64,000 nt of DNA from Candidatus Heimdallarchaeota archaeon (GCA_019058275.1 JAHLVW010000047.1:1-64000); one strand, 5' to 3'; shown: positions 49,133-57,058, counted from the stretch's first letter. The notes: generated by a model not told the origin, from the sequence alone. Numbers and translations are program-made.

Positions 49133-49587
49133 ATGACAAAAGATGAACTATCTGAAGAAGAAAAAACACACAAAAATTTGCTGTCATTCTATTTAATCAT
49201 ACTTGGGATTTATTAGACAAAAAGGAACGTACAGTAGAAGATGAAATGATTCATTCTCCTCATACCTCAAGATATCATTGGGGACAAATTGGCAAACCAA
49301 TTCACTTCGAACGTGGAGAATGGCAAATATCAAGAGTGTATTCTGTTCTGTATAAAGCTGAACCAGCCTTACATCATGCAAAAAGATGTTTAGATATTTG
49401 CACAAAAAATGATATTGGCGATTTTGACATTGCATTTACCTATGAAGCTATGGCAAGAGCTCATTCCGTTGTGGGAAACAAAGATAAAGTAACAAAGTAT
49501 CTTGAGCTTGCTAAAGAAGCAGGTGTGAAGATAGAGAAAGAGGATGACAAGAAATATTTCATGAGTGAATTAGAATCTATAAAGTAA
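49133..49587 (+). pseudogene. TPR-like helical protein interrupted by a -1 frameshift near 49174-49180
   Basis: ATG 49133 (MTKDELSEEEKTHK) joins the -1 frame FAVILFNHTWDLLDKKERT...SRYHW...RGEWQISRVY; only the 3' part (from 49246) is tracked. Confidence 0.65.
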
Positions 49588-50714: not shown

Positions 50715-52175
50715 TTGCCACTAAACAAAGCTAAAAACAAGAATTTTGCTAGAACAAAAATCGTTTGTACATTAGGACCAAGTAATGAATCGTCTGAAGT
50801 CTTAGTAAAAATGATTGAAGCAGGAATGGATGTTGTTAGACTTAACTTTTCACATAATTCACATGAATGGCATAAAGAGATGTTCATTAGGGTTAGAAAT
50901 ATCTCTGATGAAATTACTGTTCTATTTGATTTACAAGGTCCAAAGATTCGTATTGGTGAGTTAGAAAAGCCATATGCTATCTATAGAGGTGATGATTTCA
51001 TCTTAACAACTGAAGAAATAATAGGTGATAACAAAAGAGTAAGTGTTTCTTTAGAATCATTACCAAATTCAGTTAAGAAAAATGATTTGATATATATCAA
51101 TGATGGGATTATCGGTTTACGTGTTAAAAAAATTGAAGGAAATGATATTTACTGTAAGGTATTATCAAACGGAGAAATACGTAGCCAAAAAGGAGTAAAT
51201 ATTCCTAATGTCAAGTTGGATGTTCCTTGTTTGACACCAAAAGATTTGAAAGATTTGGAATTTGCACTGACATTAGAACCAGATTATATTGCATTATCAT
51301 TTGTTCATTCCCCTGATGATGTTATTAGCTTACGAAAAGTGATTAGCAATGCTAACCTCGAAATACCAATTGTAAGCAAAATCGAACATGCTTTTGCTAT
51401 CAAGAATTTTGATAAAATACTAGCAAAATCTGATGCAATAATGGTAGCAAGGGGGGATCTTGGTATTGAAACTTCAGTTACAAAATTACCATTAGTACAA
51501 AAGGAAATAATCAGCAAGTGTAATCGACAAGGGAAACCAGTTATAACCGCAACACAGATGCTTGAATCAATGATTAATAACCCTCGTCCAACTAGAGCTG
51601 AAGTCAGTGATATAGCAAATGCTATTTTTGATGGTACAGATGCTGTTATGCTTAGTGCAGAAACAGCTGTCGGTAAATATCCTACTGAAGCTATTAGTAT
51701 GATGAACAAAATAGCATTGAATGTTGAGAAAGAATTACATTGGTTAGAATTCAGAGATGAAAAATCCTCTGAAAGAGATTTAATAGCTGAAACATTAGCA
51801 ACTGCTGCTGGAATGTTGGTAGATAAAATGCCTATTAAAGCAATCATAGCTTTTACAGAGGGTGGCTTCAGTGCAAAACTTATAGCAAAACATAGACCAA
51901 AAGCGAGAATCTTTGTTGCAACACCCAGCATTAAAATTATACGCCAACTTGGATTGATATGGGGTTGTTATCCTTTACAAGTGAAAGAATACCAGAATCA
52001 TGATCAAATGGTTGTTGAAACTGTAGACTTAGCAAAGAAAATGGGCTACTTGAATGATAAAGATGTCATAGCTGTTATATCAGGATCAATTCTTTGCCCC
52101 GGTAAAACAAACTTGCTTAGAGCTTACAAAGTAGCTGATTTGCCTAGTCCAAATGAATTCAATGCAATACATTGA
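50715..52175 (+). CDS. pyk: pyruvate kinase
   Basis: RTKIVCTLGP, RLNFSH, DLQGPKIR, SKIE, MVARGDLG, ATQMLESM and DAVMLS.ETA.G.YP. Confidence 0.97.
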   Translation: MPLNKAKNKNFARTKIVCTLGPSNESSEVLVKMIEAGMDVVRLNFSHNSHEWHKEMFIRVRNISDEITVLFDLQGPKIRIGELEKPYAIYRGDDFILTTEEIIGDNKRVSVSLESLPNSVKKNDLIYINDGIIGLRVKKIEGNDIYCKVLSNGEIRSQKGVNIPNVKLDVPCLTPKDLKDLEFALTLEPDYIALSFVHSPDDVISLRKVISNANLEIPIVSKIEHAFAIKNFDKILAKSDAIMVARGDLGIETSVTKLPLVQKEIISKCNRQGKPVITATQMLESMINNPRPTRAEVSDIANAIFDGTDAVMLSAETAVGKYPTEAISMMNKIALNVEKELHWLEFRDEKSSERDLIAETLATAAGMLVDKMPIKAIIAFTEGGFSAKLIAKHRPKARIFVATPSIKIIRQLGLIWGCYPLQVKEYQNHDQMVVETVDLAKKMGYLNDKDVIAVISGSILCPGKTNLLRAYKVADLPSPNEFNAIH

Positions 52176-52186
52176 TTGTTGCAAAA

Positions 52187-53275
52187 TCATTCACTTAATT
52201 TTACCAACAAACTCTCTATACTTTTTTGTTTTTCAGTATCTTTTAGTGTTGAAAAGTAGATATTCAAATCACGTAAGAATATTCTAGCTTGGAGATTATA
52301 GTTTAATAGAGACATAATTTTTGCATGGTCGATGAGATTTGTGTTTAGATCATACTCAAACTTTGAAGGATTTTCCTTAGATAAGTATGCATTTAATTCA
52401 GTACCAAAGAATTTCAAAGGTATTTTGCCCGGTGTAATTAATCGTTTGACATTCTCATCATAGATTGATCTTTGTAGTTTGATAAGAAGATCTTGTTTTA
52501 GTGCCTTGTTTAAATCTCCCTTAATATTATCCAATGATTTATCTTTAAGGTAAGGTGCAACATAAAAATTAATGTGCAAATCAATTGCAAGAAATACATT
52601 TCCCTCTTTTGTTTTTGATGATAATTGCTTTTCTTCACAAGGTATATTTATTTCAATAATTCTATCCAACGAGCTTTTAGTAGTAATTAATGCCCCTAAT
52701 GTTTGAGATTTTTCTTTATTAAAAATGATTTTATCCCAAAGAACATCTATACCTTCAAACAATGATTTTTTAAGTTTAGTTTGTTTTTTCAAAACTTCTT
52801 TATCAGTTTCAAACTCCATTGTATGAATAAAACTCAAAAGATTTTCAGGCATTAATTTTTCTGTCTTTGCTGTAATTTTGACCAGTTTTTCCTTGGAAAT
52901 TTGATAATAATCTATCGTTTCTTTCTGTACATTCACTAGAAGTAAAACACTCTTCAAATCAGTAATCTTCTCTGCAAGTGATTTCAAAGTAAAAGTAGTA
53001 ATTTCTGTTTCACAATAAAATACTAAACCAATGATTTCCAAATTGTATGGAACCATTATTTTTAGAGCTTTTAATTGGTTGATATCATCTTCATCCAACG
53101 TTATTGCAGTTATTTTGGTATCTTTTTGCTCTGGGAAATGAACTACAGAAATGGCATGTATTTCATTTTTCTTTATATCAATAGTTCCAAGTAAAGCAGA
53201 AAATTTAATTTTTTCAGATAATTGACAAATGTTTGAAAATTGGTTGACAATTTCATTATTGATTATAAGTGCCAT
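52187..53275 (-). CDS. hypothetical protein, putative non-catalytic MPN fold, ODR-4-like
   Basis: LIINNEIV...SALLG...ISVVHFP...LDED...KIMVPYNLEIIGLVF resembles the MPN/ODR-4 N-terminus; no JAMM HxH motif. Confidence 0.5.
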   Translation of the reverse strand: MALIINNEIVNQFSNICQLSEKIKFSALLGTIDIKKNEIHAISVVHFPEQKDTKITAITLDEDDINQLKALKIMVPYNLEIIGLVFYCETEITTFTLKSLAEKITDLKSVLLLVNVQKETIDYYQISKEKLVKITAKTEKLMPENLLSFIHTMEFETDKEVLKKQTKLKKSLFEGIDVLWDKIIFNKEKSQTLGALITTKSSLDRIIEINIPCEEKQLSSKTKEGNVFLAIDLHINFYVAPYLKDKSLDNIKGDLNKALKQDLLIKLQRSIYDENVKRLITPGKIPLKFFGTELNAYLSKENPSKFEYDLNTNLIDHAKIMSLLNYNLQARIFLRDLNIYFSTLKDTEKQKSIESLLVKLSE

Positions 53276-53440: not shown

Positions 53441-54385
53441 ATGAAAAGAGTTCTCGTAATTGGCTCTGGTGGGCAAATTGGTAGTGAGCTTGTTCCATAC
53501 CTCCGTAAGAAGTATGGTAAAGAAAACGTAATAGCAACTGGAAGAAGAACAAAACTTACAGATGTAGTACTCGAAGGTGGTCCTTGCATTTATCTTGATG
53601 CTCTAAATCAAGAATCTCTGAAGAAGGTCATCTATGAAAATCAAATAGAACATGTTTATCATATGGCTTCCATTCTATCAGCAACTGGGGAAAAGATGCC
53701 TCAAACAGCATGGGATATCAACATGAATGGACTCATTAATGTTCTTGAAGTATCAAGAAGATATGGTGTAGAGAGAGTCATTTGGCCTAGCTCAATAGCT
53801 GCTTTTGGACCAACAACTCCTCAGGAAAATGCTCCAAACGAAACGATTCTACAACCAACAACTATGTACGGTATCACAAAAGTTGCTGGTGAATTATTAG
53901 CTGAATACTACTACAAGAAATATGGTTTACTTACTTTATCGATGAGATTGCCAGGAATTATCAGTAGCGAAACACAACCTGGTGGAGGAACAACTGATTA
54001 CGCAGTAGAAATCTTTTATGAAGCAATTAAAAATAAAAAATACACTTGTTTCTTAAAAGAAGATACAAAGCTTCCTATGATGTATCAACCTGACTGCTTG
54101 AAATGTCATATTGATTTAGCTGAAAAAGATGAATCAAAATTCAAGAGACACGTATACAATGTTACAGGAATGTCCTTTACTGCAGGTGAATTAGCTGCAG
54201 AGATCAAGAAACATATCCCTGAATTTACAATCGGTTATAAACCAGATTTCAGACAGGAAATTGCAGATTCATGGCCAAAATCACTTGATGATTCATTAGC
54301 AAGAAAAGAATGGGGATGGAATCCTAAATACGATCTTGCTGCAATGACCAAGGATATGTTGGACAAACTCAGTAAACGTTTGTAA
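53441..54385 (+). CDS. tdh: L-threonine 3-dehydrogenase (extended SDR type)
   Basis: GSGGQIG, LSATGE, PSSIAAFG, YGITK, PGGGTTDYAV and RQ.IADSWP; kbl nearby. Confidence 0.92.
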   Translation: MKRVLVIGSGGQIGSELVPYLRKKYGKENVIATGRRTKLTDVVLEGGPCIYLDALNQESLKKVIYENQIEHVYHMASILSATGEKMPQTAWDINMNGLINVLEVSRRYGVERVIWPSSIAAFGPTTPQENAPNETILQPTTMYGITKVAGELLAEYYYKKYGLLTLSMRLPGIISSETQPGGGTTDYAVEIFYEAIKNKKYTCFLKEDTKLPMMYQPDCLKCHIDLAEKDESKFKRHVYNVTGMSFTAGELAAEIKKHIPEFTIGYKPDFRQEIADSWPKSLDDSLARKEWGWNPKYDLAAMTKDMLDKLSKRL

Positions 54386-54443: not shown

Positions 54444-55064
54444 GTGATTGCAATGGATAAAAAGAAAATTGTTCGAGAAGGTTATAATAAAGCTGCTCAA
54501 GCGTATCTAGATAAAAGGCATAAAGATCTAGAAGAAATGAACTTCTTACCAGAATTTTCTTCATATATTCAAAAAGGCGGAAAAGTACTAGATGCTGGTT
54601 GTGGAGGAGGATTACCTTTCACAAAATATCTAAGCGAACGATTTGATGTCATTGGAATAGATATCTCTGAAAAGCAAATTGAACTTGCAAAGAAAAATGT
54701 TCCGAAAGCACAATTTATCAGAAAAGATATGACAAATCTTGATTTTCCAAATGCATTTTTTGATGGAATACTTGCTTATTATTCAATTATTCATGTTCCT
54801 CGAGAAGAACAATTTGATTTATTTGCTAATTTTTATAGAATGCTAAAAGCAAATGGTGTTGCTTTTTTCAGTTTGCATAGTACAGATGATCCAGAATCAG
54901 TTTTTGATGATTTTTTTGATACCAAAATGTTTTGGAGTGGTTTTGATAAAGAAACAAATATTAAAATGTTGAAGGATATCGGCTTTAAGATCCTCTGGTC
55001 AAAATTAGTAAATGATAGTTTAGGTGATTACCAGCATCTTTTTGTATTAATTAGAAAATCTTGA
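54444..55064 (+). CDS. class I SAM-dependent methyltransferase
   Basis: VLDAGCGGG, GIDIS..QI, YSIIHVPR and MFWS. Confidence 0.9.
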   Translation: MIAMDKKKIVREGYNKAAQAYLDKRHKDLEEMNFLPEFSSYIQKGGKVLDAGCGGGLPFTKYLSERFDVIGIDISEKQIELAKKNVPKAQFIRKDMTNLDFPNAFFDGILAYYSIIHVPREEQFDLFANFYRMLKANGVAFFSLHSTDDPESVFDDFFDTKMFWSGFDKETNIKMLKDIGFKILWSKLVNDSLGDYQHLFVLIRKS

Positions 55065-55228: not shown

Positions 55229-57058
55229 GTGAGTAGAATGGCAGAAAGTTTAGGTGCTGATTTCTTTCTTACATTTGTATTAATACTCTTCCAGTTAATC
55301 TCACTTGGTATTTTCATTACACTCTATATTAGAAAAAGACAAGCTACTTTTCAAGCTTTGATTTTTTCCATAATATTTTTTATAGCAAGTAATACAATGA
55401 CTCTAATATTTATTAATAGAGCACCAACAGACTATCCTTTGGTTCTCTTTCAAGGATTATTAGCTACTGCTGGCTTAATTCCAATTGTTATTTTTCTTGA
55501 AATATTTGAAAGTGGTACGTCATTTACACCTAGAAGCTCAGGATCCATTATTTTTATCATGGTTGTAGGGCTTATTAAGAGTGCAAATTTTGCTTTTAAT
55601 CCAGATATTGGTAACTTCATTGGTTTTATGGCACCAATAATGTTTATCTTAGTCGGAGCATTTTATCTTAATACTATTAAGAAAATGAAGTATAGAATTC
55701 GTTTTGAGAATCAAAAGAAAAAGCTAAGAAAAATACGCACTGGCATATATCTTACATTTATTATTCCCAAATTTATTATTGGATCTATCTTTACTGTAAC
55801 AGTTTTACCTGTTCTAATCAAATTCTTCGTTGAAAATCCTGAGTTTTTAGAAAATTACAACATTGAATTCCTACAAGAGGCTCAAGCAATCCATATTTTT
55901 GATATGATACTAAATACATTACAAACTATTGGATTAGTTATTATGAGCTTGCCAATAATCTATAGTCGATCAGTATTCTTTATGCAATCTCGACATGTCT
56001 CAAAGCTTATTGTAATTAGTAAAGATGGAACTCCAGTTTTTGAATTTCCATTTGAATTAGATGATGAATTATGTGATGAGGTTTTACTAGATGAAGCATA
56101 TATGGCTATAAGCACAATCATGAATAAAGGGGGAATTTCATGTGAGCAATTAAAAACGATGAATTTTGGCAATCTCGAGATAATGACCGAAATCAGAGAT
56201 GAATTTGCTGCATTGCTCTTAGTAGATCGCCCCACAAAATTCTTGAAAGATTCCTTAGACTTTTTTGCTAATGATTTCCAACAAATATATCCAAAAAATG
56301 TAAGATTAGGTGAACTAAGAACTCAAAAACTCAAATATACTGCAGAGAAAATAATTCAGAAAAGCTTTGACCTTGAGCAAGAGGAATTTGAGCAAATTAG
56401 AATTATAGTTAGTGAAGGCTATGATCGAGTTGCAGATGAATATCTTAAAACAAGATCTGAAAAGGATGAAGAAGTAAAATTATTGCCTGATTTCATGAAA
56501 AGGTTGCCAGTAGGAGCAAGAGTTTTAGATGCAGGATGTGGTGCAGGAGAACCCATAACAAGAATTCTCAGTGAAAAATTCAAAGTTACTGGTGTAGACA
56601 TCTCAAAAAAGCAAATAGAGAAAGCAAGAGAAACATTACCATTCTGTGAATTTATCTGGCAAGATATGACAACATTAACATTTCCAGATGAATACTTTGA
56701 TGGAATTATATCTTACTATGCTATACCTCATATACCAAGGGAAGAGCATAAAGAGTTACTAGAGAATTTCTTTAGAATGTTGAAGAACAATGGTATTGCA
56801 CTTCTCTGTTTTGGTACTAGTGATGATCCTGGCACTGTAGTAGATGATTTCTTCGGAGTAAAGATGTACTGGAGTAGTTTTGATGTGGGTACCAATTTAG
56901 AAATGCTCAAAGAAGTAGGCTACCATGTTCTTTGGTTGAGGTTAATCTTCGATGATGTAACAGAAGAACAACACATCTTTGTATTAGCACAAAAATTAGA
57001 TAGAGAATTTCTAGAAGAAATAAAAGAAAATGGTGAGGAAGAAACTCCTCAAGATTAA
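55229..57058 (+). CDS. 7TM + longin-like + class I SAM methyltransferase fusion protein
   Basis: Seven hydrophobic helices (aa ~10-248); LIVISKDGTPVFEF...AISTI...LKTMNFG..EI...ALLLVD...L..FA..F...Y longin-like pattern; VLDAGCGAG methyltransferase from about aa 390. Confidence 0.75.
   Translation: MSRMAESLGADFFLTFVLILFQLISLGIFITLYIRKRQATFQALIFSIIFFIASNTMTLIFINRAPTDYPLVLFQGLLATAGLIPIVIFLEIFESGTSFTPRSSGSIIFIMVVGLIKSANFAFNPDIGNFIGFMAPIMFILVGAFYLNTIKKMKYRIRFENQKKKLRKIRTGIYLTFIIPKFIIGSIFTVTVLPVLIKFFVENPEFLENYNIEFLQEAQAIHIFDMILNTLQTIGLVIMSLPIIYSRSVFFMQSRHVSKLIVISKDGTPVFEFPFELDDELCDEVLLDEAYMAISTIMNKGGISCEQLKTMNFGNLEIMTEIRDEFAALLLVDRPTKFLKDSLDFFANDFQQIYPKNVRLGELRTQKLKYTAEKIIQKSFDLEQEEFEQIRIIVSEGYDRVADEYLKTRSEKDEEVKLLPDFMKRLPVGARVLDAGCGAGEPITRILSEKFKVTGVDISKKQIEKARETLPFCEFIWQDMTTLTFPDEYFDGIISYYAIPHIPREEHKELLENFFRMLKNNGIALLCFGTSDDPGTVVDDFFGVKMYWSSFDVGTNLEMLKEVGYHVLWLRLIFDDVTEEQHIFVLAQKLDREFLEEIKENGEEETPQD

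Follow-up and report, generated by a model that had tools for sequence, protein, structure and literature searches.

The 362-aa protein encoded at positions 52187 to 53275 of the window (the whole 64,000-nucleotide stretch of Candidatus Heimdallarchaeota DNA analysed here) is probably a soluble pseudo-protease that has the two-domain fold shared by ODR4 and the N-terminal half of UFSP2, descends from an archaeal JAMM isopeptidase of the UFM1 type and likely works as a non-catalytic binder or scaffold. Profile comparisons show, at the level of sequence, that it is related by descent to Asgard proteins which match it in length and architecture and whose JAMM site is intact; the new element is the inactive archaeal form of such a JAMM-plus-domain-2 protein. 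ODR4 and UFSP2 act in the UFM1 pathway, and ODR-4 is the ER-anchored partner of UFSP2.

The gene has an ATG start, 362 codons and a stop codon. Its parts, and the neighbouring genes mentioned below, are the following:

52187 to 53275, minus strand: whole gene, monocistronic, convergent with the pyruvate kinase gene and divergent from the NAD-epimerase gene.
52850 to 53275, minus strand: residues 1-142, MPN fold without the catalytic residues (MPN-minus), from VIA-align and the MAFFT alignment.
53003 to 53026, minus strand: residues 84-91 (LVFYCETE), degenerate JAMM remnant, from MAFFT and hhalign alignments.
52376 to 52849, minus strand: residues 143-300, alpha/beta domain of the UFSP2 N-terminal ("new") type (domain 2), from the fold and Foldseek.
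52808 to 52822, minus strand: residues 152-156 (T-M-E-F-E), one beta strand with the family-invariant T152, E154 and E156.
52568 to 52582, minus strand: residues 232-236 (D-L-H-I-N), beta strand with the invariant D232 and the nearly invariant H234 and N236.
52190 to 52375, minus strand: residues 301-362, C-terminal three-helix bundle (helices 305-323, 327-343 and 347-361), from the secondary structure of the model.
49246 to 49587, plus strand: 113-aa open reading frame without a Pfam match, between the ATP-grasp and DegV genes.
50715 to 52175, plus strand: pyruvate kinase gene, convergent with the ODR4-like gene.
53441 to 54385, plus strand: NAD-dependent epimerase gene, divergent from the ODR4-like gene.
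54444 to 55064, plus strand: stand-alone SAM methyltransferase, a paralogue of the methyltransferase of the 609-aa protein.
55229 to 57058, plus strand: 609-aa protein with seven TM-like windows and a C-terminal class-I SAM methyltransferase.

The genes surrounding the ODR4-like gene (pyruvate kinase, DegV, epimerase and methyltransferases) are not informative on its function. The same gene order is found around the orthologues P0010, P0023 and P0031 (41-55% identity), indicating lineage synteny and not an operon. The 609-aa methyltransferase gene lies directly 3' of its stand-alone paralogue, and this pair was also observed beside the ODR4-like orthologue in another MAG (L008). An earlier reading, made from the sequence only, had pointed to a 7TM protein gene about 2 kb away as a possible link to GPCR maturation: a gene with seven TM-like windows does lie 2 kb away, but its connection to the ODR4-like gene is unsupported, and the GPCR link was rejected, as the product is a membrane methyltransferase fusion encoded beyond the divergent epimerase gene and not co-transcribed. 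On related contigs, open reading frames of about 150 aa without a Pfam match occupy the position corresponding to the 113-aa frame.

The ODR4-like protein is soluble, the highest Kyte-Doolittle value over 19 residues being 1.41, with no TM segment, in agreement with the absence of a C-terminal TM anchor noted in the sequence-only reading. The window strings that this reading had set beside putative human ODR4 motifs are all present and collinear over both domains: LIINNEIVNQFSNI (residues 3-16), FSALLG (25-30), ISVVHFP (42-48) and LDEDDINQLKALKIMVPYNLEIIGLVF (60-86); and further on HINFYV (234-239), KALKQDLL (257-264), LITPGKIPL (279-287) and LNAYL (294-298).

Two database searches yielded about 40 orthologues with 33-57% identity, each about 360 aa long; where a source is named, it is mostly a Heimdallarchaeota or "Asgard group" MAG. 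Forty-six columns of the ODR4-like family are at least 90% conserved which, together with the uniform length and the number of orthologues, indicates that the gene is real and under selection. Among the 400 genomes of the phylum scanned, full-length members are restricted to the window's own GTDB family (two genera), where all 11 further genomes have the gene. In a tree with archaeal sequences the members form a single clade, set off by a long stem (1.17 substitutions per site), which agrees with one inactivation event and rapid change thereafter. Beyond the family, searches gave nothing above chance: hmmscan of the window protein and 32 members with Pfam and NCBIfam produced chance-level matches only (AUDH_Cupin, 0.007; MgpC); the family profile matched, by chance, only RcpA (0.033) among PDB sequences; the same profile found nothing outside the family, and no eukaryotic protein, among 5.8 billion proteins at E ≤ 10; and phmmer against 1.84 billion representatives found no match beyond the ODR4-like family.

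The N-terminal domain has the MPN fold. Compared by VIA-align with BRCC36, PfJAMM1, Rpn11 and CSN5, it gives Z values of 11-13 over about 125-140 residues. Its metal site is lost: residues 84-91 are the counterpart of the JAMM segment H-S-H-x(5-7)-F-H-S-x-T-D-D with a 7-residue deletion relative to active relatives, and the window protein has FYCE at the place of the HSHP of its relatives and no HxH/JAMM motif, as the sequence-only reading had also remarked. In a joint MAFFT alignment of 32 family members and nine active relatives, the columns of the JAMM E, HxH, S and D are all substituted in 32 of the 32 members, while E...HSH...S..TDD is kept in 9/9 of the active relatives. Neither the window protein nor the 32 members match JAB (PF01398) or Prok-JAB (PF14464).

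Eukaryotic complexes as a rule pair an MPN-minus with an MPN-plus subunit, and the protein might likewise be the inactive member of an MPN dimer with an active JAMM protease, which it would regulate or target without any UFM1 link, as in the pairs Rpn8-Rpn11, CSN6-CSN5 and Abraxas-BRCC36. We consider this unlikely: the genome does contain six Prok-JAB genes over the Pfam cut-off (contigs C11, C64, C33, C8, C74 and C105), and the top generic structural matches are the BRCC36-KIAA0157 and Rpn8-Rpn11 complexes, but none of the six JAMM genes adjoins the ODR4-like gene, none is known to have the same narrow phyletic distribution, and most of the residues conserved specifically in the family are in domain 2, not in the MPN domain.

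The descent from an active protease is based on a distant match found in the scan of the 400 genomes of the phylum: P0043, a 363-aa protein from another Asgard family. By hhalign, the family alignment (A2) matches P0043 with a probability of 96 (E = 4.7e-9, 318 columns), and matches the alignment of P0043 and four relatives (A4) over its full length with a probability of 98.1 (E = 8.4e-14, 344 columns). In the reciprocal single-sequence search, domain 2 of P0043 alone retrieves the window gene and its orthologues, with E-values of 6e-11 to 6e-4. The active relatives have an intact JAMM site and are over the Prok-JAB and JAB cut-offs.

The genes adjoining P0043 are those of a UFM1-type system: the best PDB match of the E1 is UBA5 (2e-43, vs 1e-25 for MoeB), and the E2 is over the Pfam UFC1 cut-off, with PDB matches to UFC1 only. 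A Loki-type MAG (L039) has the same gene set as the P0043 locus, all in one direction. UFC1-like genes are present in 29 of the 400 phylum genomes and absent from the 14 control genomes and from the 11 genomes related to the window's own. Of 20 loci around UFC1-like genes, 17 have an adjoining JAMM-plus-domain-2 gene. Between both genes a tag of about 88 aa is encoded, either free-standing or fused to the E2. Nine of the 12 free-standing tags end in ...R-G-[IV]-V-G-stop, and the E2 fusions carry the same junction. The tags show sub-threshold matches to Pfam Ufm1 in 3/17 members (best 0.037), and the tag profile matches UFM1 in the PDB with E = 1; their identity as UFM1 consequently rests on the context and on the Val-Gly end. 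In the searched literature, UFSP2, UFC1 and UFM1 were described as eukaryote-only (PMC10183829), and from Asgard archaea only Ufm1, the tag, has been reported (PMC12962969); Asgard JAMM-plus-domain-2 proteases of UFM1-type operons were not found in the searched literature.

Several other features of these loci were observed. Across the 20 Asgard genomes examined for them (L048-L067), a free tag ending exactly at Val-Gly-stop is found in nine loci and one with one to three extra residues in three, while seven loci have a tag-E2 fusion, suggesting that some lineages would need a maturing protease and others not. L023 (G108 contig C84:6000-16000) and L039 share a gene set in which a zinc-ribbon protein of 360-370 aa and a UBA5-like E1 are found together with an active JAMM-plus-domain-2 protease and a 273-aa protein joining a Val-Gly-ending tag to a UFC1-like E2. 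After this set, a 199-aa open reading frame and a Vps4-like AAA ATPase follow in L023; L039 continues with a winged-helix/EAP30-like protein of 464 aa and a Band-7 protein.

The likeness to ODR-4 and UFSP2 comes from the predicted structure. The AF2 model, built with 25 sequences, has a pLDDT of 90.2 and a pTM of 0.89. Its best match in the ESM Atlas is an "odr-4 homolog" cluster, 98% of whose members carry PF14778, with a TM of 0.66 by query (308 residues over 1-339, rmsd 4.3), in a comparison of model vs model; UFSP2 clusters come next (TM 0.63-0.66), vs 0.34-0.45 for MPN-only clusters. The first eight Foldseek matches in the PDB are C. elegans UfSP (5xda and 5ejj; E of 7e-10 to 3e-8, 340-370 columns), with Rpn11 and BRCC36 behind (E of about 1e-5). 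VIA-align gives Z = 12.5 for 5xda_A, where 261 residues find a counterpart within 13-351 of the chain, a stretch comprising the MPN and N-terminal domains but not C78, vs Z values of 11-13 with about 130 residues for MPN-only proteins. According to these models, the window protein resembles ODR4 and the N-terminal half of UFSP2 alike, and neither is singled out as the closer relative. ODR4/C1orf27 was described as an MPN domain followed by a domain like the N-terminal domain of UFSP2/ODR8 (PMC13137144), and as an MPN pseudoenzyme (PMC10952357; PMC9638016).

Domain 2 carries this likeness beyond the MPN fold. Folded alone, residues 143-362 reach a pLDDT of 92.7, and Foldseek finds for them, among 350,542 PDB chains, only mouse UfSP2 (3oqc, E = 3.8e-5) and C. 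elegans UfSP (5xda/5ejj, E of 4e-3 to 2e-2, probability 0.97-1.0), the next match having a probability of 0.09. With VIA-align, the values for the UfSP2/UfSP entries are modest (Z of 6.7-6.9, 178-180 residues, rmsd of 5.4-5.8), and these are the only matches spanning domain 2 itself, the others being to the terminal three-helix bundle; in the VIA-wide search with domain 2, the matches listed were to the three-helix bundle only. That bundle has generic matches only (designed bundles, TPR hairpins and the MIT domains of Vps4, katanin and MITD1; Z of 5.4-7.8). The retrieval of UfSP2/UfSP by domain 2 alone indicates that the likeness is not a generic MPN match, the outcome that would have spoken against the sequence-only reading.

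Pfam models reveal none of this. ODR4-like (PF14778; gathering threshold 24.5 bits) has no match at E ≤ 10 in the window protein or the 32 members, and the six-frame search with PF14778 found none in the window's genome, the control genomes giving none either; UfSP2_N matches none of the 32 members, and PF07910 (C78) neither the window protein nor the 32 members. The single trace of PF14778 is a sub-threshold 15.9 bits over the MPN core of the active relative P0043. As there is no sequence-level match to ODR4 or UFSP2, homology to both rests on predicted structures only. The proposal of an ODR-4 homologue made by the sequence-only reading is thus partly upheld: the predicted MPN-minus and second domains and the TM of 0.66 to ODR-4 agree with it, but a match to the Pfam ODR4-like family is missing.

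Fold convergence or a model artefact, the protein then being a lineage-specific MPN-minus protein with an unrelated extension, appears quite unlikely as an explanation of the likeness to ODR-4 and the UFSP2 N-terminal half. The lack of any sequence-level signal to a eukaryotic family, the VIA-align values for domain 2 (Z below 8, rmsd above 5 Å) and the model vs model nature of the ODR-4 match are what would be expected from it. It does not account, however, for the selection of UfSP2/UfSP alone by domain 2 with a sharp drop thereafter, for a match that spans both domains in the same order, or for the operons of the active relatives, with UFC1-like genes and, where the flank is seen, a UBA5-like E1, a context that is evidence independent of the fold comparison.

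The conserved polar residues of domain 2 (T152, E154, E156, E208, D232, H234, N236, K266, Q268, R269 and D273) are absent from the active-JAMM relatives. They may mark a new interface or, with lower probability, a new active site; the strictness with which E154, E156, E208, D232 and H234 are conserved would by itself suit a binding surface and a catalytic or metal site equally well. The second option would make the protein a neo-enzyme, with an active or metal site formed by T152, E154, E156, E208, D232, H234 and N236, and C213 on a nearby loop; we regard it as very unlikely. These residues are invariant or almost invariant in 32 proteins whose overall identity is only 33-57%, and their alternating positions on two beta strands place them on one side of each strand; yet neither a known catalytic motif nor a Pfam family is matched, a few members have another residue at H234 and a few at C213 (Ser in two), and the eukaryotic look-alikes of domain 2 are non-catalytic (PMC10952357, PMC13137144).

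The UFM1/UFSP components that the sequence-only reading had proposed to look for in the genome were not found there, no UFSP, UFC1-like or UBA5-like gene being detected. The Pfam models ODR4-like, Peptidase_C78, Ufm1, UFL1, DDRGK and UFC1 gave nothing over their cut-offs in this 92.8%-complete genome, and PF07910 gave no match at E ≤ 10, an absence that is no proof in an incomplete MAG. The E1s detected in the genome are ThiF/MoeB-like. Weak matches to UFL1, DDRGK and UFC1 on contig C89 were discarded, since they are due to the winged helices of PheRS-alpha and to an ESCRT-I/II-like cluster; this region (L040, G000 contig C89:6000-24000) encodes UEV/Vps23-like (250 aa), Vps28 (212 aa) and EAP30/Vps36 (241 aa) proteins near a PheRS-alpha with N-terminal winged helices.

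The tag profile matches the window's genome at one place only: residues 9-85 and 101-163 of a 659-aa protein encoded on contig C115 (E = 3.7e-8).

L041:6194-8173 (L041 being G000 contig C115:22000-34000), minus strand: gene of the 659-aa tandem-tag protein.

This protein is composed of an N-terminal pair of UFM1-like domains, an acidic stretch (102 acidic residues in 300) and two C-terminal hydrophobic segments. Its N-terminal part is present in 10/11 genomes of the window's GTDB family and is matched elsewhere only, and weakly, by free tags of a sister family. The neighbours of the gene encode PAC2, an HD hydrolase, a ThiF/MoeB-like E1, OST5, an Alg9-like GT22 mannosyltransferase and a beta-CASP RNase; this E1 was considered as a UBA5-like candidate and rejected. 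The dead protease and the internal, non-conjugatable tag domains have one common phyletic range, a single lineage event (n = 1) that is no proof of interaction. The complex prediction for the window protein (A2) with the tandem UFM1-like domains (A6), with a score of 0.00 and a mark of 0.32, speaks neither for nor against binding. A UFM1-type conjugation system remodelled into a non-covalent module, in which the dead protein serves as a "reader" docking on the two internal UFM1-like domains of the membrane-anchored acidic-stalk protein, is an improbable extension. If true, the membrane-tethered ODR4-UFSP2 scaffold would have a counterpart in a prokaryote, and the MPN site would be shown to have been inactivated within archaea, as it was in ODR4.

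The favoured reading, a non-catalytic descendant of a UFM1-type JAMM isopeptidase, would imply that one Asgard family lost the free tag, the E2 and the UBA5-like E1, and that its protease was inactivated once. After inactivation, a new, strictly conserved polar surface probably arose on domain 2, and the present role is most likely that of a non-catalytic binding or scaffolding subunit, as for ODR-4 in eukaryotes. Speculatively, its candidate ligand would be the UFM1-like domain pair of the 659-aa, C-terminally membrane-anchored protein.

The papers searched make no mention of an archaeal relative of ODR4. The window gene and its active-JAMM relatives would give the ODR4/UFSP2 scaffold an archaeal ancestry, and would provide a second, archaeal case of the transition from protease to pseudo-protease known from eukaryotes. 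They make the origin of the deUFMylase complex testable, as a scaffold that was retained while the cutting domain was swapped; the small, soluble window protein is also suited to structural work on the domain common to ODR4 and UFSP2.

Compared with known systems, the MPN-minus subunits (Rpn8, CSN6, Abraxas/KIAA0157 and eIF3f/h) share with the archaeal protein an MPN fold without the metal site and a presumed non-catalytic role, whereas their C-terminal extensions are helical (MitMem_reg, coiled coils) and none of them matches domain 2. UFSP2 and C. elegans UfSP (ODR-8) have the MPN and "new" N-terminal domains in the same order as the archaeal protein, and then a C78 cysteine-protease domain (Cys, Asp and His boxes); the archaeal protein stops where C78 would start. 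ODR-4/C1orf27 and the archaeal protein are both pseudo-enzymes in which a JAMM-less MPN domain precedes one of the UFSP2 N-terminal type. They differ in that ODR-4 has a C-terminal transmembrane anchor, in whose place the archaeal protein has a three-helix bundle; ODR-4 works with UFSP2 (C78), whereas the archaeal genome has no detectable UFSP2/C78, UFC1-like or UBA5-like gene; and the archaeal protein lacks a Pfam HMM match and has its own set of invariant polar residues. The Asgard JAMM-plus-domain-2 proteases (P0043, P0046-P0049 and the genes in L048-L067) are like the window protein in length and domain order; the window family, without the zinc site and the UFM1-type operon, lies among metabolic genes, whereas these proteases keep both.
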